Source: a virus. From it: DNA of 64,000 nucleotides. This document shows positions 9,473 to 44,500 of this stretch, in pieces; position 1 is the stretch's first letter, and the number at the start of each line of letters is the position of its first letter. The DNA lies in the IMG/VR virus record IMGVR_UViG_3300036792_000363, positions 1 through 64,000 of that record; one strand, written 5' to 3'. Position numbers and translations under genes: made by a program. The notes beneath the pieces are model-generated. The model was not told the DNA's origin and searched no databases. It was given only the letters and a program-made list of their open reading frames with translations.

Positions 9473-9907
9473 TCACCCCTCCTGCCCGTGCAGGACCCCG
9501 CACCAGAAGTAGGCGCGGCTCTTGGCCTCGTCGCTCATCGCGGAGTCGAAGATGTGCTTCTGCGCCTTGGCCGTCTCGCTCCCGTCCCCCGGGTCGAACA
9601 CGACCACGGGCACGACGCTGCCCTCCGCGCGGACCCAGGCCAGGCCGCGCGGGCCGTAGGTGACCGGGCAGCCCGTCACGGGCAACTGCGCCCCGCCGTG
9701 GAAGGCGAAGTAGCCGGCCCAGAAGCTGGCATAGCAGCGGTCCTCGTCGCTCAGCTCGGAGCCGCGGATGACGTCGAGCGCCGCCATGGCCCCGTCCAGG
9801 TCGCCGGCGTCGAACTTGGCGATCTCGCGCTCGGTGAAGTCCTCGAAGCAGATCACCCAGCGGCCGATCTGCTGCACCAGGTACGTCATGCTCGGAAGCC
9901 GCGCCAT
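9473..9907 (-). CDS. Hypothetical protein with an internal duplicated helix motif
   Basis: LSDEDRCYASFWAGYF vs MSDEAKSRAYFWCGVL. Confidence 0.7.
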   Translation of the reverse strand: MARLPSMTYLVQQIGRWVICFEDFTEREIAKFDAGDLDGAMAALDVIRGSELSDEDRCYASFWAGYFAFHGGAQLPVTGCPVTYGPRGLAWVRAEGSVVPVVVFDPGDGSETAKAQKHIFDSAMSDEAKSRAYFWCGVLHGQEG

Positions 9908-9908
9908 G

Positions 9909-10289
9909 TCAGTTCCCCTTCGCGCTTGCCAGGGCGGCGCGGCGCCTGGCCACGTCGGCGGTCACCTCGGCCACCACCATGGCGGCGGCCAGGTGCGGGT
10001 TGCGGGCGCTCTTGTCCGTCATCACGACGTCGAGCGGGCGGCCCGACTGCGGCTCGTCGTTCTCGCTGCAGTAGCTGGCCCACAGGAACGTCGGCCACAG
10101 GGCGTCCAGGGAACCGTAGTGCTGCAGCCCGTACCCGATCCAGTAGCCCGCCCCGCCCGGCAGCACGTCCAGGGGCACGAGCACGGCGGGCATGTTGCAG
10201 TCGAACCGCGCGCCCAGCCCGGTGCCCTCCAGCGCCGCCGCCAGCTCCCGGCGGAAATCCTGCTCCAGCTGCTCCTCGAACGGCTCCAT
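9909..10289 (-). CDS. Hypothetical protein
   Basis: RBS GGAGGC, start MEPFEEQ. Confidence 0.6.
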   Translation of the reverse strand: MEPFEEQLEQDFRRELAAALEGTGLGARFDCNMPAVLVPLDVLPGGAGYWIGYGLQHYGSLDALWPTFLWASYCSENDEPQSGRPLDVVMTDKSARNPHLAAAMVVAEVTADVARRRAALASAKGN

Positions 10290-10504
10290 CACGCCTCCTC
10301 GGCCAGGTGGTCGATGTCGTTCTCGTCCGCGCCGAAGCGCGGGATGCTGAAGCCCTCGCGCGAGCCGTTGACGGGCCTGCGGATGGGGGCCCACGCGCCG
10401 CGCGGGTACTCGCCCTGCAGGGTCTCGCCCTCGCGCAGCTCCAGCGGCCTGCGGCGGTGACGCCCGAGCTGCGGTCGGAGTCGGAGTCTCATGGTCATGC
10501 CCAC
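10289..10504 (-). CDS. Hypothetical protein (71 aa)
   Basis: First gene after the class I promoter at 10545. Confidence 0.55.
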   Translation of the reverse strand: MGMTMRLRLRPQLGRHRRRPLELREGETLQGEYPRGAWAPIRRPVNGSREGFSIPRFGADENDIDHLAEEA

Positions 10505-10544
10505 CCCTTCGGTTGCCTGCCTGTGCGGCCAGTCTAGTGATCGT

Positions 10545-10560
10545 CTTGACTGGAGTCAAG
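10545..10560 (-). promoter_or_regulatory. Class I promoter/operator
   Basis: CTTGACTGGAGTCAAG; minus strand TTGACT-N17-TAGACT. Confidence 0.85.
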
Positions 10561-10567
10561 CAAACGG

Positions 10568-27573: not shown

Positions 27574-28089
27574 CTACCCCGGCAGGACCTCGGACAACAG
27601 TTCCTCCGCCGCCAGGGCCACCGGCACCAGGTCGCCGTCCTCGCCGGGCAGCAGCAGGACGCCGGAGCACCGCAGCGACACCGGGGTGCCGTGCACCACC
27701 CGGGCCCCGAGGCTGCGCCGGACCACCCCGAGCGGCCGCAGCGCCACGCCCAGCGGGATGTCCGTCGTGTGCAGCTCGCGCGCGACCGAGGCCGAGCCGA
27801 GCCGCTGCGGCAGGTACACCGACGTGACGCGCCCCATGTCGCGGGCCCCGGAGGCCCGCAGCACCGCCTTGCGCCGCACCCCGGCGGTCGCCCCGTCGCG
27901 CCACGACTCCAGCAGGTGGTGTTCGCGCTCGTCCAGCGCGAGCGGGACGGTGCGGTGCAGGTTCGCGCAGACGACGGCCCCGCCGGCCGCGGACTCGGCG
28001 ACCTCGCTGAACAGCGCGCCGGCGTCCAGCCGCATCAGGTAGTGGTCCAGGGCGGGAGAGTGTGTCCCGGCGGTAGTGGTCATGGCCAT
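27574..28089 (-). CDS. Chorismate pyruvate-lyase (UbiC)/UTRA-fold protein
   Basis: VRRKAVLR...RVTSVYLPQRL...LHTTDIPLGVALRPL resembles the UbiC/DUF98 R.v.L...S...l...d.PLG..L pattern. Confidence 0.6.
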   Translation of the reverse strand: MAMTTTAGTHSPALDHYLMRLDAGALFSEVAESAAGGAVVCANLHRTVPLALDEREHHLLESWRDGATAGVRRKAVLRASGARDMGRVTSVYLPQRLGSASVARELHTTDIPLGVALRPLGVVRRSLGARVVHGTPVSLRCSGVLLLPGEDGDLVPVALAAEELLSEVLPG

Positions 28090-28148
28090 CCATACCTCTC
28101 TCCCGCCCCGGCCTGCCTGCTCACACTCCTATACGTAGTCGCACGTTG

Positions 28149-28796
28149 TCAACCGGTGACCGTGATCTCCGTGCGGAAGCACCAGGCGATGCCGGGGTCC
28201 TTCATCCCGAAGCCGCCCGGCGGCGCCTTGCGGTTCATCATCACCGAGGTGCCCTCGTCGTAGCACCGGCGCAGGACGTGGCCCGGCCGCGGCCGCCCGC
28301 CGCCGGTCGCCCAGCACCACTCGTTCCAGGGGAAGCACGCCTGGTCCTCGCTGAACGTGGCCTGCCCCTCGATGACGGTGAGCGCGCCGGTCACCCGCGG
28401 GTAGCCGGGGTCCATCGGCAGGTAGAAGCTGCGGGCCTCGTCCTCCCCCTCCGCCGCCGACAGGTGCGCCTGGTCGCGGCTGAACTCGGTCACGCCGTCG
28501 GCGCCCACCCCGAAGCAGGTCCGGCCCCGCTCCAGCGGGTACCCCTCGCCGACGATGAGCGCCGCCAGGTTGGCCAGCCCGGAGAACACCACCCCGTTGC
28601 CCTCGTCGTGCACCGTCCCGCACTCCGGCTCGCGGAACATCACCCGCATCCAGCTCCCGTTCAGCGCCCGGCCGGGGGTGCCCGCCCGCGCCAGCCACGC
28701 GCGCGCGTGCCTCGTCTGGTCGGCGCTGTACTTCTCCACCGTGCACCGGGGGTACCACCCGATGCCCTCCCTGTGACCTGCGTCCATCCCGCTCAC
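28149..28796 (-). CDS. Probable virion (tail/baseplate-associated) protein
   Basis: N.vv..GL..L..L, FGVG, F.WNEW, MNRK..G.K..G..W pattern typical of phage structural proteins; late-type motif CCGATTGC upstream. Confidence 0.55.
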   Translation of the reverse strand: MSGMDAGHREGIGWYPRCTVEKYSADQTRHARAWLARAGTPGRALNGSWMRVMFREPECGTVHDEGNGVVFSGLANLAALIVGEGYPLERGRTCFGVGADGVTEFSRDQAHLSAAEGEDEARSFYLPMDPGYPRVTGALTVIEGQATFSEDQACFPWNEWCWATGGGRPRPGHVLRRCYDEGTSVMMNRKAPPGGFGMKDPGIAWCFRTEITVTG

Positions 28797-28930
28797 GCGC
28801 TGCTCCCTTCCTGCGGCGGCAATCGGACGCGGGGATGGAAAAACCGGGAAACCATGGCCGGATGCGCAAACGAGACCTAAGCTGCCGCAGGGTGCGCTTC
28901 CGCCGGGGTGGCGGCGCGAGGGAGGGGTCG

Positions 28931-30286
28931 ATGAGCACGCAGGAGAGCAGCCCGAGAGACGGCGGCCGGAGATTCGGGCTGCCGGAGAGGGCGGCCCGCA
29001 AGAAGGGCAGGCCGGCGGCGGGGCTGCCGAGGACCAGGGCGGCGAGCGCCCTGCTGGCCGACCCGCCGGTGGCCGGGCCGACCGGGCGGATCCCGCTCGG
29101 GGACCCGGAACCGGAGTCGGCCGGGCCCGGGCGGGCGGAGCCCGCCGAGATCAACCCGGCGGCCATCCGGCTGTCGCTGGAGGGGATGGAGGCCGACGCG
29201 CAGAAGTGCGCGGGCGACTTCTACGGCTACCTGTTCAACGGGTGCCCGCGCCTGCGGGAGCTGTTCCCGCCGATGATGGACGTGCAGAACGAGCGGCTGT
29301 TCGCGGCGCTGCTGAAGATCGCGTCGCTGCTGGAGACCCCGGACCAGCTGGCCCGCTACCTCGCCCAGCTGGGCGCCGACCACCGCAAGTACGGGGTGCG
29401 CCCGGAGCACTACGCGCCGGTCGGGGACGCGCTGCTGCGCACCCTGCGCCGGCACTGCCCCAACTGGAGCGCCGAGGCGGAGGCGTCGTGGGCGGCCGCC
29501 TACGCGATGGCCGCCGAGCACATGATCTTCGCCGCCGCCACGGCGCGGGGCCCCGCCACCTGGCGGGCGCAGGTGATCCGGCACGAGCAGCGCGCCCGCG
29601 GGCTGGCGGTGCTCACCCTGCAGACCGACCAGCCGCTGCCGTACCGGCCGGGGCAGTACATCACCGTGCAGCACCCGAAGTGGCCGCGGGTGTGGCGGCA
29701 GTTCTCGATCGCCAACCCGCCGCAGATGTACGGCGAGCGCAGCCTCATCGAGCTGCACGTGCGCCAGGTGCGCGGCGGCTGGGTGAGCGGCGCGCTGGTG
29801 CGCGACACGGAGCTGTTCAGCGAGGTGACCATCGGGCCGCCGGCCGGGCTGATGACCGCCGACGCGCTCGGCGAGCGCGACCTGGTGGCGGTGGCCGGCG
29901 GCACCGGCCTCGCCCCGGTGAAGGCGGTCGTGGCGGCGGTGCTGATGGCCGACGAGGCCTCCGTGGCGGCCGGCGGCGGGTACCGGCGCAACATCCACCT
30001 GTTCCACGGCGCGCAGACCCCGACCGGCCTGTACGACATGCCCGCGCTGCGCGAGCTGTCGGATGTCTACCCCTGGCTGCAGGTGGTGCCGGTGGTGGCG
30101 GACGAGAACTTCCCCGGGCTGACCGGCTGCGTCTCCGACGCGGCGCTCGACTACGCGGAGTGGGCCGGCCGGGAGGCGCTCATCGCAGGCCCGCCGGACA
30201 TGACCGCGCTGGCCGTCAAGCAGTTCCGGGACGCAGGGTTCCTGGACATGCAGGTGCACTACGACCAGCTGGAGACGCAAGGGTAG
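28931..30286 (+). CDS. Globin-domain FAD/NAD(P)H oxidoreductase (flavohaemoglobin-like) with an ~85-aa low-complexity N-terminal extension
   Basis: Globin DFYGYLF..CP.LRELF...QLGADHRKYGVRPEHY..VGDALL; FAD-binding YRPGQY, RQFSIAN; NAD-binding VAGGTGLAP, GPPDM; RBS GGAGG. Confidence 0.92.
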   Translation: MSTQESSPRDGGRRFGLPERAARKKGRPAAGLPRTRAASALLADPPVAGPTGRIPLGDPEPESAGPGRAEPAEINPAAIRLSLEGMEADAQKCAGDFYGYLFNGCPRLRELFPPMMDVQNERLFAALLKIASLLETPDQLARYLAQLGADHRKYGVRPEHYAPVGDALLRTLRRHCPNWSAEAEASWAAAYAMAAEHMIFAAATARGPATWRAQVIRHEQRARGLAVLTLQTDQPLPYRPGQYITVQHPKWPRVWRQFSIANPPQMYGERSLIELHVRQVRGGWVSGALVRDTELFSEVTIGPPAGLMTADALGERDLVAVAGGTGLAPVKAVVAAVLMADEASVAAGGGYRRNIHLFHGAQTPTGLYDMPALRELSDVYPWLQVVPVVADENFPGLTGCVSDAALDYAEWAGREALIAGPPDMTALAVKQFRDAGFLDMQVHYDQLETQG

Positions 30287-31462
30287 GTGCTGATGTTCAC
30301 CTCCAGGCGCAGGACGACGGCGGAGTCCGTCCCCCTGGAAGAAGCCGAAAGGTTCGTGCGCGAGTACCACGCCGAGAACGGGGGCGAGGAGGGCAGGCGG
30401 CTGCGCGAGGTGCGCGCGTCGATCGCGCGCACCGGCACGTACCGGCACACGACGGCGGAGCTGGCGTGGGCGGCGCGGGCCGCCTGGCGGCACAGCGCCC
30501 GGTGCACCGGGCGCTACAACTGGCGCACGCTGCGGGTGCGGGACCTGCGCGGGGTCTCCGACCCCGACCGGGTGGCGGCGGAGACGATCGAGCACCTGCG
30601 CGTCGCCACCAACGGCGGCAGGGTCCGCTCCTACATCACGGTGTTCGCGCCGGACGAGCCGGGGCTGCCGGGGCCGCGCATCCTCAACGCCCAGACGGTG
30701 CGCTACGCCGGCTACCGGCAGCCGGGCGGCGAGGTGACCGGCGACCCGGGCAACGTCGGCCTCACCGACCTGGCGCGGGGGCTGGGCTGGCGCGGGGGCG
30801 GCGGGTCGTTCGACGTCCTGCCGCTGGTGATCTCCTCGGGCGGCCGGCTGCGGCTGTTCGAGGTGCCGCGGGACGCGGTGCTGGAGGTGCCGATCACCCA
30901 CCCCGACTTCCCCTGGTTCGCGGGGCTGGGGCTGCGCTGGTACGCGGTCCCGGTGGTGACCGACATGTACCTGGAGGCGGGCGGGGTGCGCTACCCGTGC
31001 GCCCCGTTCAACGGCTGGTACCAGGCGTCCACCGAGGTGGGCGTGCGCAACTTCGGGGACGAGGCGCGCTACGGGATGCTGCCCGCGGTGGCGGCGGGGA
31101 TGCGGCTGGACACGAGCAGCGAGTCGACGCTGTGGCGCGACCGCGCGGCGGTGGAGCTGGCGGTGGCGGTCACCCACAGCTTCAAGGCGGCCGGGGTGAT
31201 GGCGACCGACCACCAGACCGAGACGCGCCGGTTCATGAAGTTCGCGGAGACCGAGCGGGCGGCGGGGCGGCCGTGGAGCGCGGACTGGGGGTGGATCGTC
31301 CCGCCAATCGGGGGCTCGACCACCCCGCCGTTCCACGCGACCTACCCGAACGAGACGCTCACCCCGGGGTTCTTCCGGCACGACCCGCCGGACACCGCGC
31401 TCGCGGCGTGCCCGTTCGAGCACGGCGGCGCCTGGCGGGGCACCGCCAGCATCGCCGGCTGA
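30287..31462 (+). CDS. nos: Nitric oxide synthase oxygenase (bacterial type)
   Basis: Heme-thiolate motif AWRHSARCTGR, NAQTVRYAGY, GDP, FDVLPL, WYAVP, PFNGWY...TEVGVRNF, DHQT, ADWGWIVPP. Confidence 0.97.
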   Translation: MLMFTSRRRTTAESVPLEEAERFVREYHAENGGEEGRRLREVRASIARTGTYRHTTAELAWAARAAWRHSARCTGRYNWRTLRVRDLRGVSDPDRVAAETIEHLRVATNGGRVRSYITVFAPDEPGLPGPRILNAQTVRYAGYRQPGGEVTGDPGNVGLTDLARGLGWRGGGGSFDVLPLVISSGGRLRLFEVPRDAVLEVPITHPDFPWFAGLGLRWYAVPVVTDMYLEAGGVRYPCAPFNGWYQASTEVGVRNFGDEARYGMLPAVAAGMRLDTSSESTLWRDRAAVELAVAVTHSFKAAGVMATDHQTETRRFMKFAETERAAGRPWSADWGWIVPPIGGSTTPPFHATYPNETLTPGFFRHDPPDTALAACPFEHGGAWRGTASIAG

Positions 31463-31470
31463 GGGCTAGG

Positions 31471-31800
31471 TCAGGCGATCTTCCCGGCGCACAGCGGCGC
31501 GAACGCGCTGGCGAAGTTGAAGTTGGAGGGCTGGTTGGCGGTGCCGAAGAACACCCCCGACACGGTGCCCAGGTAGTCGACGACCTGCAGCGCGTACTCC
31601 GCGTCGGACTGGCTCCCCGGGTTCTCGGTGTTCGCCTCGCTGGCGAACCCCAGCTGCTGCAGGTAGGCCAGCCCGTTGCCCTGCCCGTTGATCCACCCGT
31701 TGAGGGTGACCGCCTGCTGGTTGAGGTCCCGCAGCCCCACCGTCAGGTCGGTGAGGATCTGGCTGACGGTAGCGGCGCTCGCCTGGTTCCCTACGCTCAT
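31471..31800 (-). CDS. Probable small virion/tail-associated protein (109 aa)
   Basis: Follows the tail tip gene; CCGATCAT-N6-ATG start. Confidence 0.65.
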   Translation of the reverse strand: MSVGNQASAATVSQILTDLTVGLRDLNQQAVTLNGWINGQGNGLAYLQQLGFASEANTENPGSQSDAEYALQVVDYLGTVSGVFFGTANQPSNFNFASAFAPLCAGKIA

Positions 31801-31817
31801 GCCCGGATGATCGGCGG

Positions 31818-34800
31818 CTAGGGCCCGAGCCGGGTGAACTTGCTGCCGTACCCGGTGATGGTCTCGCCGCTCGCGGTCGCGCCCCACTCCGCCGCGACGG
31901 CCACCGTGTTGGCGGCGGTGGTGTTGAACGCGATGGTCGAGTACGTGCTGCTGAGGTAGCCGTTGTTGTTGTTCGTCCCGGACGAGCGCGTGCCGGCATT
32001 GCCGACCCCGCCGTCCAGGAACACGGAGGCCGCGCCCGACCCCCCGGTGGAGACGACCTGCAGCTTGGCGCGGATGGTGCCGGCGAAGTTGGACGCGCTC
32101 GGGAAGAACGCCGGCCCGATGGTGATGGCCGCGCCCTGCTGGGAGCTGTTGAGCCAGAGCGTCCAGGTGAGCGTCTGGTTCTCGAACAGGCCGAAGAACG
32201 GGACCTCCACCTCGTACATGGTGGTGAACTGCGCGGTGTTCGCGGGGATCGACCAGGCCTTGGTGATGGCCGTGTACCCGGTGGAGGTGGCGGTGTAGGT
32301 GGCGGCGTCCACCTGGACCAGCGGGACGTAGCCGAAGGCCCCCGAGCCCGTCATCACCTCGACGCTGGTCCCCGTCGCGGACCCGGCCGGGGCCGGGAAG
32401 ATCTTGGCCCCCGCCGTCGGGGCGGCCGGGGCGGTGGCCGGGACGGCGAGGGTGAGCACGCCCTTCGCGTCGGTGCCCAGGTTCGGCCCGGCGGGGATCG
32501 AGTTGCCGTACTGGTCGATGAACGCCGGGCCGGTGTTGACGAAGAACCCGACGCTGGGCGTGCCCGTGATGTAGCTGAGCCGGACCTGCCCGTTCGCGCC
32601 CGCCGCGCCCGGGCTGATGTTGACCCCCGGGCGGGACCCGCCGCCTCCGCCGCCTCCGCCGGGGGTGAACCCGGCCTGCCCGGGCGACGCCCCGGAGGCG
32701 TGGGACGCGCCGCCCGCGCCGCCCGCGCCGCCGCCCGCCACGGCGGGCCCGCCCGCGCCGCCGTTGGTGCCGCTGGTGCCCGCGGGCGTGTCCCCGCCGT
32801 TCCCGAAGCCTCCGCTGCCCCCCGAGCCGCCGCCTCCGCCGCCGCCCGCGCCGCCGCCGTTCCCGGCGCCGAAGCCGCCCGTGTTCGCGATCGAGTTGCC
32901 GCTGGCCGCGCCGCCGTTGCCCCCGACGCCCGAGCCCGCGTTCCCGGGGGACCCGGGGTTGCCCGTCACGGTGGCGCTGGAGCCGGTGAGCGTGGACGCG
33001 CCGCTCGCCGCGCCGCCGTTCGACCCGACCGCGCCGCCGCTGCCGCCCGACCCGACCGAGTAGGAGACGGTGCCGCCGCTCGGCACCGCCAGGACCGGCT
33101 CGCAGCCGTAGCCGCCGCCGCCGCCCGCGCTGCCGCCGAACCCGGACGAGTTGCCGCCTCCGCCGCCTCCGCCCGGGCCCCAGGACTCGCCCTTGGCGAC
33201 GGTGATCCCGGCCGGGATGGGGATGGTGCCGCTGCCGCTGGTCTTGGTGACGATGACCTGGCTGCCCGCGCCCGAGTACAGGATCATCGCGTACGGGGAC
33301 AGCGCCATCAGCGGGGTGAACACCAGCGTCTCGCCGTCGGGGGTGCTGGTGGTGCCGAACGTCACCACCGCGGTGTCGGACCCGGTGTCGTTCTCGCTCT
33401 CCAGCAGCATCGCCGCGCCGGTGGTGGAGGCCAGCGGGCTGGAGACGACCAGCGACTGCTTGGTGGTGCCCCCGCTGCCCACGTCCATCGCGCCGATGAG
33501 GCCGGGGATGACCTCGTTGGAGTCGCCGCTGTTGTACTGGGTCATCGCGGTCAGGACGCCCGCGATGGCCGTGGTCAGGTTGAACGCCTGGTCGGCGTTC
33601 GGCTGCAGCACCAGGTTGCTGGAGCCCGGCGCCCCGATCATCAGCCCGGCCGGGTAGCTGTTGCCCGCGCCGCCGGAGACGGCCGAGTCGTTGCCCGCGG
33701 TCGCCGACCACGACCCGATCAGGTTGCCGACGGCGGGCGGGCCGGCGTAGACGAACACCTCGCCGGACGTGCCGTAGGCGACGAACTGCGCGCCCTCCAC
33801 CAGGGTGCCGTTCACCACCCCGGCCAGGATGATCCCGACCGCGATCTGGTTGGCGGTGATCGACAGGGCCTCGATGAGCTGGCCCTGCACCTGCCCGGCG
33901 GCCACCGCCCCGGTCACGTAGACGGTGACGCCCGAGGACGGCAGCTCGATGACCTGGTACCCGCTGGTGGTCCCGGAGGGGGCGTCCGACACCATCGCCA
34001 GCGGCGTCCAGATCGCCGGCGGGACGCTGAACGTCTGCAGCCCGCCCGCCCAGTTGAACCCGATCTGCACGTTGACCGCGGACCCCGACGGGTTGTAGAC
34101 CCAGGCGGTCATCGAGTAGGGCTGGCCCGCCGTCACCGGGAACGGGGCGGGCGACCCGTTCATGTACCCGTTGGCCGCGGTGGACGCCAGCTGCGCGCAC
34201 CACGGCGGGGCCCCCGGCGCCCCCGCGGGGACGGACTGGGTGGCGGTGAGGGTGGCGTTGGCGGCGGCCCACCCGGTGAGCGACCCGCCGTTGAAGAACG
34301 GGTTGGGGTTGAGGGCCCAGGACCCGGCGCTGTTGCCGAGCACGCTGGCCGGCAGCTGCCCGGTGACGATGCCGCCGGGCACCCCGGTGGCGGTGGCGGC
34401 CGCGCCGGGGGTGGGGGCGGAGGCGTTGCCCGAGGTGTTGACCGCGGTCAGCTTGGCCCAGTAGGTGACGCCCGCCGTCAGGCCGTTGACCGCCACGGTG
34501 CCCGCCGTCTGCAGCGTGCCCATCAGGGTGGACGGGCCCGGGGTGAACGACGAGGAGGTGCCCAGGTAGACCTGGACGTACTGGAAGTCGGACAGCGGGG
34601 TCGCGCCGCCCCCCACCTTCCCGTCCCAGGTGATGGTGACGCCCGCGATGACGCCGACGGCGGCCGGGGTGTCGGGAACGCCGGGGGCGGGGCCGTTGGA
34701 GTCCACGACGGTGACGGTGCCGTCGCCCTGCAGCCCGACCGTGGTCCTGGTGGCCCCGTTGACGACGATGACGGTGGTGTCGGGGGCCTGGGTGTTGGAG

Positions 34801-37800
34801 GCGGTGGGGCTGGACACCGACGACGGCAGCGTGCTCCCGGTCACCGGGTCGGTGGTGCCGGCCAGCTGGTAGTTCCCGGTGGTCGGGTTGTAGACCAGCG
34901 GCGAGTTGGCGAGGGTGCTCCCGGCCGACCCGGTGGCGACGTCGGCGAGCCGGGCGAGGGTGGCGGCCGGGTCGAAGTAGGTGGGGACCTGCCCGGTGCC
35001 GTACTTGCTCGGGGCCACCGGGCTGGTGCCGAGCACGTTGACGAACTGGCCGCCCAGCCGGCTGGAGATGTAGGTCAGCTGCTCCTGCAGCCACTGGATG
35101 TAGCTGATGAGCGTCAGCTCGTGCGCCTCGTTGCCGCCGGAGTCCACCGACACGGCGATGCCCATCACCCGCACGTCGTCGACCGCCGAGAAGTCGGGCC
35201 GCTCCAGGCCCAGCCAGTCGCCGACGCTGAAGTTCTCGAAGACCGTCCGGCCCGGCAGGTTGGGCGCCAGCTGCAGGGTCCAGCTCAGGATCTCGGTCTC
35301 GTTCTGCGCCAGCGCCGACGCGGTGGCGTAGGCCATCGAGGTCGGGTCCACCTGGACCGCGGTCTGGTACCAGGCCTCCCGCTGCCCCCACTGCGCGATG
35401 TAGCCCGGGCTGGAGGCGGAGATCTCGTGCCCGTCGGCGTTCTCCCCGCCGATGAGGGTGGTGATCTGGTTGCGGGCGCGGACCCGGGTCTTGGCGGCGC
35501 AGTCGTAGCCCTCGCGCAGGATCAGGTACGAGGACCGGTCGGTGCCGAGCGCCACCTGCCCCGGCGCCGGCTGGCCGACCCGCAGCTGGAACCCGGGCAG
35601 CATGATGTAGTCGGCGTTCACCACCGACGCGGCGGACTGCAGGAACGAGTACAGGTCGGTGCCGTTGGTGGCCTGCACGTTCTGGGCGTCGCTCCAGGCC
35701 CGGCCGAAGCTGTCGGCGGTCGCGCTGGTGTCGGTGTGCATGAACGGGATGGTGCCGCGCGCCTTGGCGGCCTCGAACTGGTCGAGCCACACGCCCATCA
35801 GCGGGACGTTCAGGTAGATCCGGCCCTGGTAGCTGGGGGTGGTGACGTTGGAGTTCAGGTTGGTGAGCTGGGCCGACTGCCCGGTGCCGGAGTAGGAGGC
35901 GGTGAAGTAGAGCGAGACGTCGGTCGCGTCCCAGTTGTGGACGATCGTCCACTGCTGGGTCCAGGTCTGGCCGTCGGGGCTGGTCCAGAAGTAGAACGTG
36001 CCCGACCCGCCGGGGGTGCCGCCCTGCTCGGTGATCTGCCAGTACGCGTGGCTGGTCGGGTTATAGGCGGGCAGCACCTTGGTGTAGGTGCCGCTCGGCC
36101 CCCGGAACTGGCAGTAGAAGGCCGACGCCGACAGCCCGAACAGCGCGTAGTAGGCGGTGTTGAGGTTGGACTCGATGTAGAACTGGGTCAGCTGCGAGCC
36201 GTTCAGCCCGGCCCCGTACGGGGCCGGGGTGGAGGAGTCGGCCGCGTTGGCGCTCACCCCGACCGGGGTCACCTGGGCGGAGATCAGGGTGTTGGTCGCG
36301 TCGTAGGGCGACGCCCCCAGGAACGTGGTCCCCGGGGTGGCCACCAGGGTGACCGACCCCGACGGGTACAGGGTGGACAGCGCGTAGCCGGTCCCGCCCG
36401 GGTAGTTGTAGATGACCCCGGTCGGGGTGATGTAGACGTCGGCGGCCGGGGTGGCGGTGGTCCAGATGTTGGTGTCGAGGACCCCGTTGCCGTTGACGTC
36501 GGTCTCGTCGAAGCTGTCGAGGATGCCGTCGAGCTTCAGGATGATGTCGGGGAAGCCCTGCGGGGCGATCATCGCCCACTTGAGGGCGGCGATGGTGCCG
36601 GGCCCGGTGATGGTGGCGGTGCGCTGCTCGGACGGGTCCACCAGCTGCTCGGTGACGGTCTCGCCGAAGAACTCGAACCGGCGCACCCCGTCCTGCCAGA
36701 ACTGCCACAGGCACTCCTCGTCCAGCAGGGTGGACGAGGGCAGCCCGCCGGGGAGGGTGACGTGCTGCCACCACGGGTCGTCCTGCGACAGCACCACCGT
36801 GCCGGAGCCGATGTCGTCCAGCTGCATCGCGAACTGGAAGCTGACCAGCATCGACGACGGGATGACGGCCAGCAGCGTCACGTAGTCGGCGGCGGAGACG
36901 ACCTGGATCTCCCACCCGTTGCCCACCGCCGACGGGGTGATCGCGCCGACCCCGGCCGGGCCGCCCGGGTAGCCCGCCGGGTTGACGGCGGCGGGCATGC
37001 CCGTCTGCACGGTGGGGCCGGACCCCAGGCGCGGCCCGCCCAGCCGCCCGCCGACGGGCGGGTTCGCCCCGACCACGCCGGGCAGCGTGCCGATGAAGGT
37101 GGACGGCTCGGGCGGCAGGATGACCGCGCCGCCGGCGGACGTCCCCAGCGCGGCCATGGCCAGGTGGCCGGTGCCGGTCACGTTGCTGCCGTGCTCGGAG
37201 CCGGCGCCGGACATCCCGAGCGGGGCCATGGCCAGGGACCCGGCGGAGGTGACCCCGCCGCCCGTCTGGGACCCGGCGCCCGACACGCCCAGCGGGGCCA
37301 TGGCCAGGTGGCCGGCGGAGGCGATGTTCTCGCCCGCGGCGCCCGACACGCCCAGCGGGGCCATGGCCAGGGACCCGGCGGAGGTGACGGCGGGCGGGGC
37401 GCCGATGACGAGGATCGCCGAGCTTGGCACGTCCCAGGTGGCGCCGGTGGTGAGCGTGCACGACACCGCCGAGCCCGCCGTGGCCGCCACGTTGTAGGCG
37501 GCGAGCGTGTCGGTGAAGGACAGCAGGGTGTAGCCGCTGGACGCGCCCGTCCACTCGCCGTTCAGGAGGCTCGTGTTGACGCAGACCAGGACCGGGCTGC
37601 CGGACGGCGCGTTGACCGACGGCGTGGTGATGCTGCTGACCCCGCTGGCGAGGGTGCCGTTGGAGGCCGCGCCGAGCACCCGGGCCCCGGCCGGCAGGCC
37701 GCTGAACTCCTGGACCTGGACCTCGGCGAAGTCGCCGCTGCCCGACAGCACGACAGTGACGGAGGTGACCGCGTTCGCCACGAGGCAGCAGGCGATGGCG

Positions 37801-38051
37801 GTCATCCCGTACTGGGTGACCGAGGCGTCGTAGGAGCCGTTAACCGGCGGGTTCTGGTTGGCGGTGGCGGTCGAGTAATTCCACGTGTTGCCGGCGGTGT
37901 CGCTGATGGAGACGATGTGGAGCGCGGTGTTGCTGGTCACCCACTGCGTCGCGTACAGGACCAGGCAGTGCCCGGCAGTGGTGGTGATCGGGACGGTGAA
38001 CGTCGTGCCGCCGCCGGTCTGCGCCGTCCCGTCCTGGACGTGCGTGGTCAC
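31818..38051 (-). CDS. Large multidomain tail tip/central fibre protein (2077 aa)
   Basis: Tal/hub-like segment (WEIQV...LDDIGSGTVVL), FN3-like and carbohydrate-binding-like (NPNPFFNGGSLTGW) domains, Gly-rich C-terminal region. Confidence 0.85.
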   Translation of the reverse strand: MTTHVQDGTAQTGGGTTFTVPITTTAGHCLVLYATQWVTSNTALHIVSISDTAGNTWNYSTATANQNPPVNGSYDASVTQYGMTAIACCLVANAVTSVTVVLSGSGDFAEVQVQEFSGLPAGARVLGAASNGTLASGVSSITTPSVNAPSGSPVLVCVNTSLLNGEWTGASSGYTLLSFTDTLAAYNVAATAGSAVSCTLTTGATWDVPSSAILVIGAPPAVTSAGSLAMAPLGVSGAAGENIASAGHLAMAPLGVSGAGSQTGGGVTSAGSLAMAPLGMSGAGSEHGSNVTGTGHLAMAALGTSAGGAVILPPEPSTFIGTLPGVVGANPPVGGRLGGPRLGSGPTVQTGMPAAVNPAGYPGGPAGVGAITPSAVGNGWEIQVVSAADYVTLLAVIPSSMLVSFQFAMQLDDIGSGTVVLSQDDPWWQHVTLPGGLPSSTLLDEECLWQFWQDGVRRFEFFGETVTEQLVDPSEQRTATITGPGTIAALKWAMIAPQGFPDIILKLDGILDSFDETDVNGNGVLDTNIWTTATPAADVYITPTGVIYNYPGGTGYALSTLYPSGSVTLVATPGTTFLGASPYDATNTLISAQVTPVGVSANAADSSTPAPYGAGLNGSQLTQFYIESNLNTAYYALFGLSASAFYCQFRGPSGTYTKVLPAYNPTSHAYWQITEQGGTPGGSGTFYFWTSPDGQTWTQQWTIVHNWDATDVSLYFTASYSGTGQSAQLTNLNSNVTTPSYQGRIYLNVPLMGVWLDQFEAAKARGTIPFMHTDTSATADSFGRAWSDAQNVQATNGTDLYSFLQSAASVVNADYIMLPGFQLRVGQPAPGQVALGTDRSSYLILREGYDCAAKTRVRARNQITTLIGGENADGHEISASSPGYIAQWGQREAWYQTAVQVDPTSMAYATASALAQNETEILSWTLQLAPNLPGRTVFENFSVGDWLGLERPDFSAVDDVRVMGIAVSVDSGGNEAHELTLISYIQWLQEQLTYISSRLGGQFVNVLGTSPVAPSKYGTGQVPTYFDPAATLARLADVATGSAGSTLANSPLVYNPTTGNYQLAGTTDPVTGSTLPSSVSSPTASNTQAPDTTVIVVNGATRTTVGLQGDGTVTVVDSNGPAPGVPDTPAAVGVIAGVTITWDGKVGGGATPLSDFQYVQVYLGTSSSFTPGPSTLMGTLQTAGTVAVNGLTAGVTYWAKLTAVNTSGNASAPTPGAAATATGVPGGIVTGQLPASVLGNSAGSWALNPNPFFNGGSLTGWAAANATLTATQSVPAGAPGAPPWCAQLASTAANGYMNGSPAPFPVTAGQPYSMTAWVYNPSGSAVNVQIGFNWAGGLQTFSVPPAIWTPLAMVSDAPSGTTSGYQVIELPSSGVTVYVTGAVAAGQVQGQLIEALSITANQIAVGIILAGVVNGTLVEGAQFVAYGTSGEVFVYAGPPAVGNLIGSWSATAGNDSAVSGGAGNSYPAGLMIGAPGSSNLVLQPNADQAFNLTTAIAGVLTAMTQYNSGDSNEVIPGLIGAMDVGSGGTTKQSLVVSSPLASTTGAAMLLESENDTGSDTAVVTFGTTSTPDGETLVFTPLMALSPYAMILYSGAGSQVIVTKTSGSGTIPIPAGITVAKGESWGPGGGGGGGNSSGFGGSAGGGGGYGCEPVLAVPSGGTVSYSVGSGGSGGAVGSNGGAASGASTLTGSSATVTGNPGSPGNAGSGVGGNGGAASGNSIANTGGFGAGNGGGAGGGGGGGSGGSGGFGNGGDTPAGTSGTNGGAGGPAVAGGGAGGAGGASHASGASPGQAGFTPGGGGGGGGSRPGVNISPGAAGANGQVRLSYITGTPSVGFFVNTGPAFIDQYGNSIPAGPNLGTDAKGVLTLAVPATAPAAPTAGAKIFPAPAGSATGTSVEVMTGSGAFGYVPLVQVDAATYTATSTGYTAITKAWSIPANTAQFTTMYEVEVPFFGLFENQTLTWTLWLNSSQQGAAITIGPAFFPSASNFAGTIRAKLQVVSTGGSGAASVFLDGGVGNAGTRSSGTNNNNGYLSSTYSTIAFNTTAANTVAVAAEWGATASGETITGYGSKFTRLGP
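37140..37390 (-). repeat. Four tandem ~20-aa repeats (S/T-A/G-G-S/H-LAMA-P/A-LG-x-S) in the tail tip protein
   Basis: Repeated CCCAGCGGGGCCATGGCCAG-like DNA units. Confidence 0.8.
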
Positions 38052-38089: not shown

Positions 38090-38500
38090 TCAGGTGCCGG
38101 TCTGCGACTGCGTGATGGTGAACGCCGAGCAGGAGACGGTGGCCCCGCTGACGATCGACAGCGTGGACAGGTTCAGGTCGCCGCCGCTGGGGCTCGCGAC
38201 GGTGCCGGTGGCCACGACGGTGCCGCCGGACTCCTCCACCACGAAGTAGCCCGCGGTCCCGGTGTTGCCGGCCGTGCCGCTGGCGATGGCGTTGGCGGTC
38301 GCGGTGACCGTGCCGGAGGCGGCGGTGGAGGACCCGAACGCGGTGCCGCCGAAGGTGAGGGTGGCCAGCAGCGTGCCGGTCACCGCGCCGTCGAGCGCGG
38401 GCTGGGTGCCGGTGTAGAGCTTGAGGGTGCCGCCGTTCAGCAGCGCGGCCACGGCGTTGACCGACGCCTCCACCGTGACGTCGTACCAGTAGCTGCTCAC
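38090..38500 (-). CDS. Virion structural protein (Thr/Gly/Ala-rich beta protein)
   Basis: GGTLKLYTGTQP...LLATLTF...ASGTAGNTGTAGYF. Confidence 0.75.
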   Translation of the reverse strand: MSSYWYDVTVEASVNAVAALLNGGTLKLYTGTQPALDGAVTGTLLATLTFGGTAFGSSTAASGTVTATANAIASGTAGNTGTAGYFVVEESGGTVVATGTVASPSGGDLNLSTLSIVSGATVSCSAFTITQSQTGT

Positions 38501-39005: not shown

Positions 39006-39932
39006 TCACCCGATCCCGTAGAGGCTGAACTGGCTGCCCACCAGGAAGTCGGACCCGGCCGGGGCGGTCAGCGAGATGGAGGAGACCGCCGCCTGCGACC
39101 CCGGGTTCCAGAAGCCCCAGCGGGTGCGCCCGTCCACCATCGAGGACGTGCCGTTGCCGGCGCCGGACAGGGAGTAGGCGGCCTTGTTGTAGGAGGCGTT
39201 CGAGTAGTTGGGGATGACCGCGAACCCGCCGCCGGCGTTGGCCGGGGCCCCGCCCTGCGCGGCCGCCACCCGGAACAGCGGGATGCCCGCCACGGCGTAG
39301 CCGGTGGTCTGGGCGGCCACCAGCGACCCGGAGGTGTTGGCCACCGAGCTGTTGAGGTAGCTGTAGTCCGCCCCGGTGTCGCCGTTGAAGTTCAGCGTGA
39401 TGTCGTCGGTGAGGGCGGTGGTCTCCGTCAGCCGCGCCTGCACGACCACCAGCAGGTGCAGGCTGGTCTGGGGGATCGACGACCAGGTGACCACGTTGGT
39501 GGTGGAGTTCGCCAGCGTCGTCTCGTTGAAGGTGGCGCAGGCGTTGGCGAGCCAGGCCGAGTTCGGCAGCCCGTGCACCCCGCTGCCCGACCCGGCGGCG
39601 TAGTGCGCGGCCGCCGCCGTCAGGTCGCCCGCGCTCCAGGTGTGGGCGATGGCCGTGCCCGCCACGTGGGTCCGGGGTGTGGTGCCGTCGTACCCGCGGG
39701 TGACGATCCACGGCGCCGCCGACGTGCCCGCGCCGGAGGTGACGCTCACCAGCTCGAAGTTGGCGCTGCCCGGCTCCAGATCGAGGGTGAACGGGAACGA
39801 GGTCGGGTAGCCGACGGGCGCGCCCGAGCCGGCGTAGATCGACGTGGCCGACGTCGACAGGTTCCCGCCGCCGGTCACCGCGAGGGTGTCCTGCACAGCG
39901 ACGTTACTGTAAAAGCGCCATTGCGTAGTCAC
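39006..39932 (-). CDS. Minor tail protein
   Basis: Position after Dit; FPFTLDL..ELVSVT..VTRGYDGT..H.AG motif of actinophage minor tail proteins. Confidence 0.75.
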   Translation of the reverse strand: MTTQWRFYSNVAVQDTLAVTGGGNLSTSATSIYAGSGAPVGYPTSFPFTLDLEPGSANFELVSVTSGAGTSAAPWIVTRGYDGTTPRTHVAGTAIAHTWSAGDLTAAAAHYAAGSGSGVHGLPNSAWLANACATFNETTLANSTTNVVTWSSIPQTSLHLLVVVQARLTETTALTDDITLNFNGDTGADYSYLNSSVANTSGSLVAAQTTGYAVAGIPLFRVAAAQGGAPANAGGGFAVIPNYSNASYNKAAYSLSGAGNGTSSMVDGRTRWGFWNPGSQAAVSSISLTAPAGSDFLVGSQFSLYGIG

Positions 39933-40704: not shown

Positions 40705-41568
40705 CTAGACGTACGCGTCGTTCCAGGCGAAGGTCGCGGTCCCGGCCGTGTTGGTGATGACGTTGGCGCCGCTGAGCAGGCACTGCCACATCCGGCTGCC
40801 GACGTGGCTGAGCCCGCCGACGCAGTTGTTGCCCGCGGCGTCGACGGCGGTGTAGCGCAGGATGTCGATCGTCACCGGGTAGGCCGCCACGCCCGCGCCG
40901 CTGTGGGTGAGGCTCACCCCGGCGGTGGTGTTGGTGACGGTGGTCGCGGCGGTGATGGTGACGGTGAACGAGTTGACGGCCGACGCGAACCCCTCGCCCA
41001 CCACCCCCTCGCCGTAGGCGTTGATCGTCGCGCCCGCGGTGGTGACCGCCTGGGTGCGCGCCCCTCCGTAGAAGTACGGGTCGGACAGCAGCAGGTCGAC
41101 GCTGAAGGCGGCCGAGGTGCGGCCGTTCATCGTCGGGTCCATGCTGCCCGCCAGCTCCGCCATCGCGGTCGACTGGACCATGGTCGGGGTGCCGTTGAGC
41201 GTCCAGTACCAGTTGCGCTGCAGCTGGCTCTGCACCTGCCCCTGCGCGCCGCGCTTGAAGAACAGCGCCCGCAGCGCCTGCCAGTTGTCGTTGAACGCCC
41301 GCCGCGGGTCGCCCGCCGGGTACGACTGGTTGGCCGACATCTGGCTGTCGGTCCACATGGTCAGGGTGATGGTGCGCTCGTCCGGGTACTTGGACCGCCA
41401 CAGCTGGCCCGCCCGGTAGGGCACCTGGTAGTCCTGGCCGCGCAGCGTCGGCACCCCGGCGCGCGACCCCCCGAAGGTGGCCACGTTGTAGTAGCTGGTC
41501 GACAGCGGGACCCCGTTGAAGTACCAGATCTCATTCGGGGAGTAGGCCCCCACCGGCGCGCTGGGCAT
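40705..41568 (-). CDS. Distal tail protein (Dit-like)
   Basis: Directly after the tape measure; ERTITLTM, F.VDLLLSDPYFYG. Confidence 0.8.
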   Translation of the reverse strand: MPSAPVGAYSPNEIWYFNGVPLSTSYYNVATFGGSRAGVPTLRGQDYQVPYRAGQLWRSKYPDERTITLTMWTDSQMSANQSYPAGDPRRAFNDNWQALRALFFKRGAQGQVQSQLQRNWYWTLNGTPTMVQSTAMAELAGSMDPTMNGRTSAAFSVDLLLSDPYFYGGARTQAVTTAGATINAYGEGVVGEGFASAVNSFTVTITAATTVTNTTAGVSLTHSGAGVAAYPVTIDILRYTAVDAAGNNCVGGLSHVGSRMWQCLLSGANVITNTAGTATFAWNDAYV

Positions 41569-44500
41569 AAGGCGATCCCCCTCCCGGCGAGGAACGCGAG
41601 GCGGTTGGAGCTTCTCGTGATCGAGTCGCTCGGCTTCTCGGGCCGCGGGTTGTTAATCGTTAGCTGGCCGACCTCCAGGCCGACGGTGCGCCCGGCCGCC
41701 TCCGACAGCGAGCGCGGCATGGTGCCGGTCGCCTGCGAGGAGAGCTGGCTCTGCATGGTGGCCGACAGGCCCGGCAGGAACAGGTTGGGCACCACCCCGC
41801 CGGCCGCCATGCCGGCCCCGAACATCGACGACACGGCCGCCGGGACCCCGCCCCCGCCGGCGAGCCCGAACCCGTAGTCCCCGCCGGGGGACCCGCCGCC
41901 CGGCCCGCCGACGATGAGGCTGTTCAGGTCCACCGTGACGGGGGCGTTGCCCGGGTTGCGCACCGTGATGCCGGGGATCAGGTACTCGCCCCAGATCCCC
42001 TGCCAGGCCTTGGCGGCCCCGGCGACGTCGCCCTCCAGCATCTGCAGGTGGTCGTAGGTGTCGCCCCACGCCTCCGGCCGGTACTCCTTGCCCACGGAGG
42101 CGTTGCGCAGCGCCGCCGCCCACCCCGTCAGGCTCCGCTCGGCGGCGGTCCAGTCCCCGGAGGTGAGCGCGGCCGGGTCGTTCACGTCGGCGAAGATCGG
42201 GCTGAGCGCGGCGTTGGCGTTCTTCTCCGCGAGGGCGGCGCCGGCCCGCTGGGCCATCCACGTGTTCCACTGGGCCTGGGTGGGGGCCTTCCCCCCGGCC
42301 GGCCGGGGCATCTGGTAGAGGGCCTGCCAGTTGCCGAACGCCTGCTGCCAAGTGGCCTTCATTCCCCTGGTGCTCTTGCCCGCCACGTCCTTCTCCAGCT
42401 GCCCGACGTCCGCCCGGGCGTTGGCCCAGAACTCCGGGTGGTACTGCCGCCCCAGGTTCATCGCGCCGAGCGCGCTGTCCCAGGAGGCCAGGTCGCGGCC
42501 GGCCAGCTGCCACTCGGCCGTCGTCGGGGCGCGGGCGCCCAGCAGCGCGTCGACCGCCTTGTTGGCGTTCTTCTCGGCCAGGGCCGCGGCCGTGCGCTCG
42601 GCGTCGAACTGCAGCCACTGCGCGTTCGTCGGGCCGTACCCGGCCGCCGGGCGCTTGTTGAGCTGGTAGAGGTCCTGCCAGGCGATGAACGCCTGCTGCC
42701 ACTGCGGGTGGATCTGCCCCGCGTACCTCGCCCAGGCGGTCACGTCCGCCTTGGGGATGACGGAGCTGGTGGGCACCGGCGGGACGGCCAGCGCGCTGCC
42801 GACCTGCTTCCACCCCTCGGTCAGCAGCGCCTTGTCGGGGGTGTGCCACGACGTGCCCGCCGCGGTCTGCGCGATGGCGGCGGCGTACAGCGCGGCCTGC
42901 TCCGGCTGGGACTTCCACCGGGCGGCGCTGGAGGAGTTGACCGACGTGCGGTAGTACGGCTCCATCAGCCGGGCGGCCTTGGTCGGGTTGTAGGCGTCGG
43001 CGGCGGTGAACCCCTTGTGCTTGCGCAGGTTGGTCAGCCACGCGCCGTACTCGTCGGCCGACGGGTCCTTCGCGGTCGCGTCCCAGCGGGACAGCAGCCA
43101 CGACGCCAGCGCCATCGACTCCCGCTGCTCCAGGTTGCCGGTGACCGACTTCAGCGCCGACACCACCGGGCCGCCGCCCGCGTACCACCCGTCCGCCAGT
43201 TCGTGCGCCCAGGCCCCGACCGGCGTCCCGTAGCGGTCCTTGATGTAGTTGATCATGGCGGTGATCTGGCCGACGGCCGACGCGCTGCTGCCGCCGTACT
43301 GCGCGTACTCCGACGGCCCGTTGATGAACTGCGCCAGCCCGTACGCGCCCGACGTCGGGTTCCTGGCGGACAGGTTGTAGCCGGCCTCGCGCATCTCGAC
43401 GTTGTTCAGCGCCGACCAGTTCGCGCCGGTCCACCCGACGGAGGCGGCCATCGACTGCATCAGCTTCTGGATGGTCGCGCCGGCGCCGGTCGGGTGCAGG
43501 GAGGAGCCCGCCGCCTCGGCCTTGGAGGTCTGGCCGTTGATGTAGTTCTCGACCCCGTTGTGGATCTGCTGCACCCACGACGCGGCCATGTCCCCGGGGG
43601 TGCCCAGGTGCTCCAGCCCGGCCTCCGCGGGGGCCCCGCTGACCGACCACATGGCGTCGAAGACGGCCTTCTCGCCGTACCGGGCGACGTCGCGGGCGGC
43701 CCCCGCCACCCCGCTCCAGGCCCCCTTCGCGAGGGACCCCACGTCGCCCGCGACGTCGCCCAGCCAGTTCCCGATGTTGTTGATGATCCCGCCGCCCGCG
43801 TACCTCCCGGTGGCCGGGCGGCGCTGGCTGGCCGCGTTCCCGCGCGACCCCGAGCCCAGCCAGGCGTCGGCGTTGTTGAGGTGGTCCATGAAGTCCGGCC
43901 CGTAGGCGGCCTGCAGCGCCATCCGGGCGGGCTTGCGGAGCATGTACTCCCCGCCCATGGCGATGATGTGGGTGCCGTCCTCGTCGCCGGTGCCGGGCAC
44001 CGAGCCCGACGCCATCGGCACCCCGCCGCCGCGCGCCAGCTTGGGGATCGGGCTGATGTGGACGCCCACCACCCCGGTGACGGAGTTGATGAACCCGATG
44101 ACGGTGTTCATCCCGCCGATCGCCCTGTCGATGCCGCCCTTCAGCCCGCCCCAGATGGCGTTGGGCATGGTGGTGGTGAACCAGCGCTCCATCGGCTGCA
44201 CCAGCCCCCGGCTGAAGTCGGTCCAGCCCTGGCTCCAGAACTTGTTCCAGTCCCGCCCGAGGCCGTCGAACCAGTTCGGCATCTGGCTGTTGAAGAACTT
44301 GCCGACGTCCGAGACCAGGTAGTGGCCGAATCCCTGGCTGACGTTCACCCAGACCCCGGTCAGGGCCGTGCCGGCGCTGATGAACCAGCCGGTGACGGTG
44401 TTGTTCCAGAACTGGTCCCACGGCGCGCGGATGTTGCCGTCCCACCACCGGTTGAACGCCTGCCATCCGGCGATGAGGGCGTTGTTGGAGGCGTTGTAGG

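Follow-up and report, generated by a model that had tools for sequence, protein, structure and literature searches.

The window analysed here, the first 64 kb (64,000 bp) of the 124,773-bp IMG/VR virus record IMGVR_UViG_3300036792_000363 (termed G000), encodes a compact two-gene cassette that couples a nitric oxide synthase (NOS) oxygenase to a flavohaemoglobin-like protein. The source of the DNA is a tailed phage, a large virus of soil actinobacteria. Judged from sequence comparisons, the pair appears to be a true phage operon that selection has preserved, an auxiliary metabolic or moron-type unit which probably produces nitric oxide (NO) by means of the NOS and dioxygenates it to nitrate by means of its partner. 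Both enzyme kinds have been described before; the novelty lies in their viral setting, in their arrangement as an operon and in their repeated occurrence in phages that are not related to each other.

The flavohaemoglobin-like protein, hereafter the partner, is encoded by the upstream gene (gene 1), and the NOS by the downstream gene (gene 2). An earlier note, made from the letters of this DNA, had described two abutting plus-strand genes with TAG followed directly by GTG, and the junction indeed reads so: the stop codon of gene 1 occupies positions 30284-30286, and the GTG of the NOS gene follows immediately at 30287. An alternative NOS start, ATG at 30293, lies 6 nt past the GTG and is implied by a 389-aa database version of the same protein; the NOS stop codon TGA is at 31460-31462. 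The pair had also been described as oriented against its tail-module neighbours, in agreement with the gene calls, all others of which from ~26.4 to 59.9 kb are on the minus strand, with tail and virion genes adjoining the pair. The G+C content at third codon positions (GC3) is 0.97 in gene 1 and 0.99 in gene 2, matching that of the neighbouring genes. In every phage copy of the cassette found, the stop and start codons abut or overlap.

The NOS oxygenase

The product of gene 2 was matched over residues 17-367 by the Pfam family NO_synthase (PF02898), with 447 bits against a cut-off of 22.7 (E 7e-134) and coverage of model positions 6-359 of 362. It consists of a single oxygenase domain, the only domain detected by Pfam, and has neither a reductase domain nor an N-terminal zinc hook. 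Its best match in the PDB is the Geobacillus NOS (2flq), with an E-value of 1.5e-108. The NOS motifs listed in the earlier note are all present, namely WRHSARCTGR with Cys73, QTVRYAGY, NGWY, TEVG with Glu250, and DWGWIVPP. All 24 NOS sequences compared share the residues C73, W67, E250, W244, Y245, W336, P339 and P340; from established knowledge of NOS structures, we take Cys73 together with Trp67 to form the haem-thiolate site and Glu250 to bind the substrate. Altogether, gene 2 encodes a bacterial-type NOS oxygenase.

All phage-type NOSs share a one-residue insertion before the substrate-binding Glu, with WYQASTEVG in place of WYMGTEIG (window positions 31018-31045, residues 244-253). They also have RC(T/S)GR for RCIGR and DHQ for DHH, in addition to a conserved Cys in YPCAPF. 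The position adjacent to the substrate is a Val (PVV) in G000 and in the metagenome contig L086, and an Ile in most other phage copies. Most bacterial NOSs have Ile beside the substrate, and the Val of animal NOSs has been linked to efficient NO release (PMC9500659). As most phage copies lack this Val, rapid NO release by the phage enzymes deserves little weight.

The flavohaemoglobin-like partner

The earlier note had read gene 1 as a globin plus FAD- and NAD(P)H-binding domains, and the profile searches that it proposed gave the same assignment: Globin at residues 96-195 (E 3e-13), FAD_binding_6 at 218-306 (E 4e-6) and NAD_binding_1 at 321-428 (E 3e-11) in gene 1, in addition to NO_synthase in gene 2. 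The partner comprises a disordered N-terminal segment (residues 1-68), a globin domain (~76-204), an FAD domain (~211-306) and an NAD(P)H domain (~318-444); no flavodoxin or flavin mononucleotide (FMN) domain was detected in either gene by Pfam. The AlphaFold2 model of gene 1 has a mean predicted local distance difference test (pLDDT) score of 81, with residues 1-68 below 50. Foldseek search with this model revealed that the top six matches are all flavohaemoglobins, aligned over ~400 columns along the whole length, among them Hmp of E. coli (1gvh) with an E-value of 5e-22 and a template modelling (TM) score of 0.71.

Among 27 clade members, Y98, Q119, L123, H151, Y161, R256, S259, G323, G324 and P329 are invariant. 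By comparison by eye with Escherichia coli Hmp, we take Y98, Q119, L123, H151 and Y161 to correspond to TyrB10, GlnE7, LeuE11, HisF8 and TyrG5, respectively. The flavin motif reads RxFS for RxYS, in which the Phe (F258) is nearly invariant, and the NAD(P)H motif GGTGLAP is kept. The globin domain matches haemoglobin-like flavoproteins at an E-value of 3e-11 and flavohaemoglobins at ~1e-6, in a range that includes single-domain bacterial haemoglobins. Because its score falls far short of the curated NCBIfam cut-off (given below), gene 1 is classed with a divergent flavohaemoglobin-like subfamily rather than as an Hmp equivalog.

The N-terminal extension of the partner (~70 aa, window positions 28931-29134) is rich in Arg, Pro and Gly. 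Across the phage copies its length is kept and its sequence barely so; the extension is shared with the homologues of Actinomycetospora and absent from the ~370-aa homologues of Streptosporangiales. A complex prediction of the NOS with partner residues 80-451 gave a score of 0.00, and, as it was run without controls, this value is evidence in neither direction.

Phage context of the locus

The G000 record is linear and estimated by CheckV to be 82% complete, with 117 of 137 gene calls on one strand. PHROGs identified a tape measure, a tail assembly chaperone, a tail-fibre-like protein and a virion protein in the window, and a major head protein, a prohead protease, a portal, a terminase, a DNA polymerase, a clamp loader and DnaB in its remaining part. 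Searches of this 82% complete record for a tyrosine or serine recombinase were negative, and a megablast of 24 kb against GenBank phages returned no match. A Pfam search for Terminase_6N had no match in any of six records; since PHROGs recognises a terminase in one of these, G000, the search is uninformative.

A chimeric assembly with joins at 28800 and 31470 had been raised as a concern, and both junctions are spanned by other sequences. A separately assembled 8,407-bp Logan contig covers positions 27800-32600 with zero differences and flat depth; it probably derives from the source sample, and so represents an independent assembly rather than an independent sample. In addition, soil metagenome contigs of four other samples (L086, L087, L089 and L090; L-numbers denote the loci and contigs compared) share the order of a 215-aa gene, the pair, a 109-aa gene and a 2077-aa gene, with protein identities of 55-85%.

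Distribution among phages

IMG/VR was searched by alignment-based scans; single-sequence pattern scans missed relatives. A co-directional pair, abutting or overlapping, was found in three further virus records (G001, G002 and G003; the other genomes compared are numbered G001-G005). G001 is a genome of 103,563 bp with direct terminal repeats (CheckV 100%), in which an endolysin gene and a tyrosine integrase gene flank the pair, and its portal is only 27% identical to that of G000. G002 is a 35.8-kb fragment of a relative with a portal 73% identical, and carries the pair beside the terminase and portal. G003, a complete genome (100%) of 165,085 bp, likewise has direct terminal repeats; homology to G000 was not detectable in its portal or capsid, and its capsid, encoded 9 kb upstream of the pair, belongs to a different PHROG family. 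The cassette recurs in several phages that are unrelated. The claim of the earlier note that the genes are phage-encoded holds, given the hallmark genes on the same contig, the same locus in relatives and the two complete genomes with terminal repeats.

In large protein databases, the partner is represented by >60 clusters and the NOS by >100, with identities of 53-85%. Some 31 longest-contig sizes, up to 161 kb, coincide between the metagenome match lists of the two proteins, from which we infer that the same contigs, many of phage-genome size, carry both genes. One member of the partner clade, L094, has no NOS within ~3 kb downstream.

A further phage genome, G004 (IMGVR_UViG_3300027857_000012; 134 kb, ~43% GC, CheckV 100%), encodes a terminase, a portal, a tape measure and a DNA polymerase, along with an NOS that is unrelated to the cassette NOS (46% identical) and groups with Firmicutes and archaea in the tree. 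This NOS was acquired independently of the cassette (locus L109:5935-7772). A 211-aa protein begins 14 nt after it and has a C-terminal globin (PF00042, E 2.5e-10) with the proximal-His motif LGARHEKYGV, no flavin domain, and an N-terminal domain of ~75 aa without family match; instead of being an enzyme, this protein might sense haem ligands or regulate through its haem. Since G004 pairs its NOS with a flavin-less globin, what recurs beside phage NOS is a globin, not a reductase.

Two side observations belong here. A third NOS-plus-globin arrangement is found in the high-GC metagenome contigs L102 (3216-5497), L103 and L104, where an NOS (49% identical) lies beside an oppositely oriented single-domain globin. 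In G003, a tRNA-like sequence, read by eye, lies directly upstream of the cassette (L084:8575-8650).

Evolution and cellular relatives

In a maximum-likelihood tree, the NOSs from phage context form one clade, with a Shimodaira-Hasegawa-like approximate likelihood ratio test (SH-aLRT) support of 100. This clade is separate from the NOSs of Streptosporangiales, the nearest named organisms (58-63% identical), and from those of Pseudonocardiaceae, a family in which 56 of the 101 genomes sampled encode an NOS. Similarly, the partner proteins form a 26-member clade with a support of 100, outside which fall the Streptosporangiales sequences annotated as 'globin domain-containing protein / NO dioxygenase' (45-49% identical). 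Within the two clades, the branching orders broadly agree, as they should if the genes were passed on as one unit. All phage copies of both genes are intact, and the pairwise ratios of nonsynonymous to synonymous substitution rates (dN/dS) among them range from 0.03 to 0.58, values that overestimate relaxation because a GC3 of ~99% compresses dS.

One subclade of the NOS clade includes the contig L008, which has bacterial-looking neighbours (MgtE-like and methyltransferase genes) and a globin-FNR gene that falls outside the phage partner clade. L008 may represent either a donor lineage or a phage-to-cell transfer; the statements on this subclade rest on genome G005, which is flagged as unpublished.

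On many Actinomycetospora chromosomes, a globin-FNR gene whose product is 40-45% identical to the phage partner lies ~2.5 kb from a divergently transcribed NOS gene. A description of this neighbourhood was not found in the literature searched. The order, seen at L010:2299-7104 and ~25 further loci, is the globin-FNR gene, a 382-aa gene without Pfam match, and the divergent NOS gene. A globin-FNR gene also lies within ~3 kb of NOS in two metagenome-assembled genomes of uncultured Actinomycetota, on the same strand in L009 and convergent in L008. The two families are those of the phage pair; in cells, however, they are transcribed divergently or convergently and have other genes between them, whereas the phage genes are co-directional and abutting. 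The association of NOS with globin-FNR is thus older than the phage cassette or at least parallel to it, and phages have condensed it into an operon. In Amycolatopsis and Pseudonocardia, homologues of the globin-FNR gene are found at a great distance from NOS, which, together with L094, suggests a function independent of NOS.

The relation to cellular genes bears on the reading that the pair is passenger DNA or an artefact, either a recent, unexpressed capture from a host or an assembly join of phage and bacterium. Related genes are neighbours in Actinomycetospora chromosomes, hence the source is cellular in the long run, and G000 is a linear metagenome contig with 82% completeness. However, a separate assembly covers both junctions, the contigs of four other samples have the pair at the same site, and two complete genomes with terminal repeats contain it. 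Moreover, the phage copies are all intact despite a mutual protein divergence of 15-40%, the nearest named bacteria are no closer than the identities given above for the NOS and the partner, and the GC3 is the same as that of the phage. The concern of a recent host insertion is likewise answered by the divergence of the intact phage copies and by their own clades apart from cultured bacteria. The probability of a passenger or an artefact is close to negligible, and this reading is refuted as far as sequence allows.

Proposed function and alternatives

We propose that the two proteins probably act in succession on NO. The NOS would convert L-arginine to citrulline and NO, with a host pterin or folate and with electrons from host flavoproteins, as is the case for stand-alone bacterial NOSs. 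In the partner, NAD(P)H would reduce FAD, which would in turn reduce the globin haem of the same protein, and the oxygenated haem would dioxygenate NO to nitrate. Together, they would maintain a self-limited NO flux in the infected cell, with a net conversion of arginine to NO and then to nitrate. With two polypeptides, the pair would thus match in function the NOS and globin chemistry of syNOS from Synechococcus PCC 7335, the globin of which turns NO into nitrate (PMC9500659; PMC6104048). Candidate benefits are the protection of the host cell factory from oxidative or antibiotic stress, NO signalling without respiratory self-poisoning, interference with host Fe-S or haem proteins, and competition with other phages or bacteria. 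The evidence leans to making and quenching NO over electron supply, because the globin residues that would handle O2 and NO do not vary, the protein folds like a flavohaemoglobin, relatives of the partner occur away from NOS, and G004 pairs its NOS with a globin that has no flavin domain.

Several points weigh against this proposal. Gene 1 scores 95.3 bits against the NCBIfam model of the NO-inducible flavohaemoprotein (NF009805), below its cut-off of 432, and an NO dioxygenase activity of its product would be an extrapolation. The insertion before the substrate Glu and the other clade-specific changes may affect phage-type NOS. The NOS would need an electron donor, and the close link of its gene to that of an NAD(P)H-flavin protein might point to the partner in exactly this role. 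Any benefit to the phage of making NO only to destroy it would be conjectural. Finally, the dN/dS values are only rough, owing to the compressed dS at ~99% GC3, and a strict sigma-70 consensus scan called no promoter upstream of the pair.

A lesser though real possibility is that the partner serves as the dedicated reductase of the NOS, passing electrons from NAD(P)H to FAD and, possibly via the globin haem, to the NOS haem, so that the pair would be a self-sufficient NO generator; such a role may also hold in addition to NO dioxygenation. The abutting or overlapping stop and start codons in every phage copy and the broadly congruent gene trees, which fit co-inheritance, are consistent with this role. 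The FAD/NAD half of gene 1 has its best PDB match in GcoB, the reductase of a haem-thiolate cytochrome P450 (5ogx, E 2e-16), and in the Polyangiaceae locus L052 an FNR-like segment lies directly upstream of an NOS. Bacterial NOSs are mostly single oxygenase domains that run on cellular reducing equivalents (PMC9500659), and that paper cites in its references a Sorangium NOS that is self-sufficient through an attached reductase (Agapie 2009). By contrast, the distal and proximal haem-pocket residues are invariant in the 27 clade members, which would be unexpected for a mere scaffold. The whole-length model superposes on flavohaemoglobins, and in solved structures of flavohaemoglobins the flavin faces the protein's own haem. 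The flavin-less globin beside the G004 NOS and the family members far from NOS in several actinobacterial genomes also argue against a dedicated reductase. In a more doubtful version, the partner would do both, feeding the NOS haem and dioxygenating surplus NO; the pair would then be the first natural two-component self-sufficient bacterial-type NOS system, and several phage lineages would use it during infection to reprogramme actinobacterial physiology by means of NO, with effects on respiration, development or anti-phage defence.

A different question is what NO would be for. It is unlikely, albeit compatible with the chemistry of synthesis and dioxygenation preferred here, that NO is a weapon or signal and that the flavohaemoglobin only shields phage replication; the targets might be sensors with Fe-S or haem (the earlier note named WhiB-like and DosS/DevS-like ones), the respiratory chain, host development or sporulation, defence enzymes such as those of the radical-SAM type, or phages that superinfect. 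The Val beside the substrate in G000 and L086 fits such a purpose, although it is not conserved and most phage copies have Ile. The cassette apparently has its own promoter, separate from the late genes, and in Streptomyces signalling is under the control of an NO/nitrate/nitrite cycle in which a flavohaemoglobin takes part (PMC4766573). However, no WhiB gene or other obvious NO-responsive gene was found in the 82% complete G000 record, and this purpose is conjectural throughout. Biosynthetic nitration, in which a nitrating enzyme would receive its NO from the NOS in the way that TxtE receives it from TxtD when thaxtomin is made, is very unlikely: the actinobacterial NOSs TxtD and RufN do feed the P450s TxtE and RufO (PMC9500659), but the annotated phage loci have neither a P450 gene nor any other biosynthetic gene beside the pair, and the conserved partner is a flavohaemoglobin.

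Comparison with known systems

Like the stand-alone NOSs of Geobacillus (gsNOS, 2flq) and Bacillus subtilis (bsNOS, 1m7v/2an0), the phage NOS is a single oxygenase domain of ~360-390 aa with all haem, substrate and pterin motifs and with neither a zinc hook nor a reductase. It differs from them in its phage origin, its separate clade, the insertion before the Glu, RC(T/S)GR, DHQ and, in G000, the Val; moreover, the phage NOS is always coupled to a flavohaemoglobin gene. The partner shares the domain order, fold, haem pocket, RxFS and GGTGxxP with flavohaemoglobins such as E. coli Hmp (1gvh), Cupriavidus FHP (1cqx/3ozu) and the yeast protein (4g1v); however, it is only ~20% identical to them, has a disordered extension of ~70 aa, is encoded by a phage and is translationally coupled to an NOS.

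The earlier note had named the pair a split syNOS-like unit, which is not supported. Both systems couple an NOS oxygenase with a globin; nevertheless, syNOS is one polypeptide with a globin, an oxygenase and a diflavin reductase, whereas the phage system has two polypeptides. The phage reductase module is of the single-flavin FNR type and serves the globin in a flavohaemoglobin architecture and fold; a diflavin reductase or an FMN domain is absent. Between the phage globin and that of syNOS (9q05, 9q15) the match has an E-value of only 0.086, so by descent the pair is not a split syNOS.

The NOS of Sorangium cellulosum resembles the phage system in that an FNR-superfamily NAD(P)H-flavin module is tied to a bacterial NOS. 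Its reductase is reportedly of the 2Fe-2S/FNR type, with electrons relayed via an iron-sulphur domain. The module is fused to the NOS in Sorangium, whereas in the phage it belongs to another polypeptide than the NOS, and a globin takes the place of the ferredoxin domain.

Novelty and implications

The earlier note knew of no described phage NOS, and none was found in the literature searched, in PHROGs or in verified GenBank phage records. Neither the NOS nor the partner matches any PHROGs family, and two conserved NOS motifs have matches in only five of the 2.9 million IMG/VR contigs. The word phage is absent from a 2022 review of bacterial NO formers. Two unannotated NOS-containing Staphylococcus 'phage' records in GenBank were rejected as probable host DNA, one (OR845001) being marked UNVERIFIED_ORG and the other being a 1,539-bp fragment. 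The NOS gene of OR845001.1 lies at 9494-10561 (L105), and probably stems from host DNA carried along in the phage preparation.

If the cassette is active, NO would join the metabolites manipulated by phages, and would do so in soil actinobacteria, where it already governs development and antibiotic production. The pairings of NOS with a flavohaemoglobin or a globin offer a tractable system for the electron source of bacterial NOS and for the ways in which NO producers avoid self-poisoning. The compact two-gene module might also serve the engineered conversion of arginine to NO or nitrate.

Flanking genes and regulation

Table 1. Positions in the window of the cassette, its expression signals and the neighbouring genes
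Feature	Position	Strand	Details
Flavohaemoglobin-like gene (gene 1, partner)	28931..30286	+	451 aa; Pfam, AlphaFold2 model, Foldseek
NOS oxygenase gene (gene 2)	30287..31462	+	391 aa (start GTG 30287) or 389 aa (start ATG 30293)
Shine-Dalgarno sequence GAGGGAGGGG	28918..28927	+	3 nt 5' of gene-1 ATG 28931
Promoter-like element	28855..28883	+	-35-like TGGCCG (28855-60), 17-nt spacer, -10-like TAAGCT (28878-83)
Upstream flank, 215-aa phage gene	28149..28796	-	phrog_23653; divergent from the NOS/flavohaemoglobin pair
Downstream flank, 109-aa gene	31471..31800	-	convergent with NOS, stops 8 nt apart; GC3 1.0 in frame
2077-aa virion or tail-region protein	31818..38051	-	without Pfam or PHROG match; marks the syntenic site
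Virion protein	38090-38500	-	PHROGs
Tail-fibre-like gene	39006-39932	-	PHROGs
Tape measure	41361-49469	-	2702 aa; PHROGs

The layout xTGxCx, 17 nt and TA[AGT]GCT is found upstream of the pair in G000, L087, L089, L090 and L100, and L083 has a comparable element, TTGCAG-17-TAGGCT. The -10 hexamer fits the actinobacterial TAnnnT form. We infer from this conserved layout a putative promoter of the cassette, and independent transcription by the host polymerase, running against the late tail genes, is plausible. The GGGAGGG core before the start codon is found at the equivalent position in L087, L089, L090 and L100; this conserved position of the Shine-Dalgarno sequence supports the translation of the N-terminal extension of gene 1. 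Just 3' of the -10 hexamer, a perfect palindrome TGTGTGA(A/T)TCACAC that looks like an operator is present in three contigs (L089:8625-8660, L090:1171-1200 and L100:794-825) and absent from G000. Two terminator-like sites were called, both inside flanking genes, and the 8-nt gap between the NOS stop and the convergent 109-aa gene leaves no room for a terminator.

Homologues of the 215-aa gene flank the pair in L087, L089, L090 and L100, and homologues of the 2077-aa gene lie 3' of the pair in L086, L087, L089 and L090. The 109-aa gene, which is absent from the earlier note, has no family match; its homologues (34-39% identity) occupy the same position in L086-L090 and L099. On the minus strand, a CCGATT is located at 28821-28826, ~25 nt before the start of the 215-aa gene.

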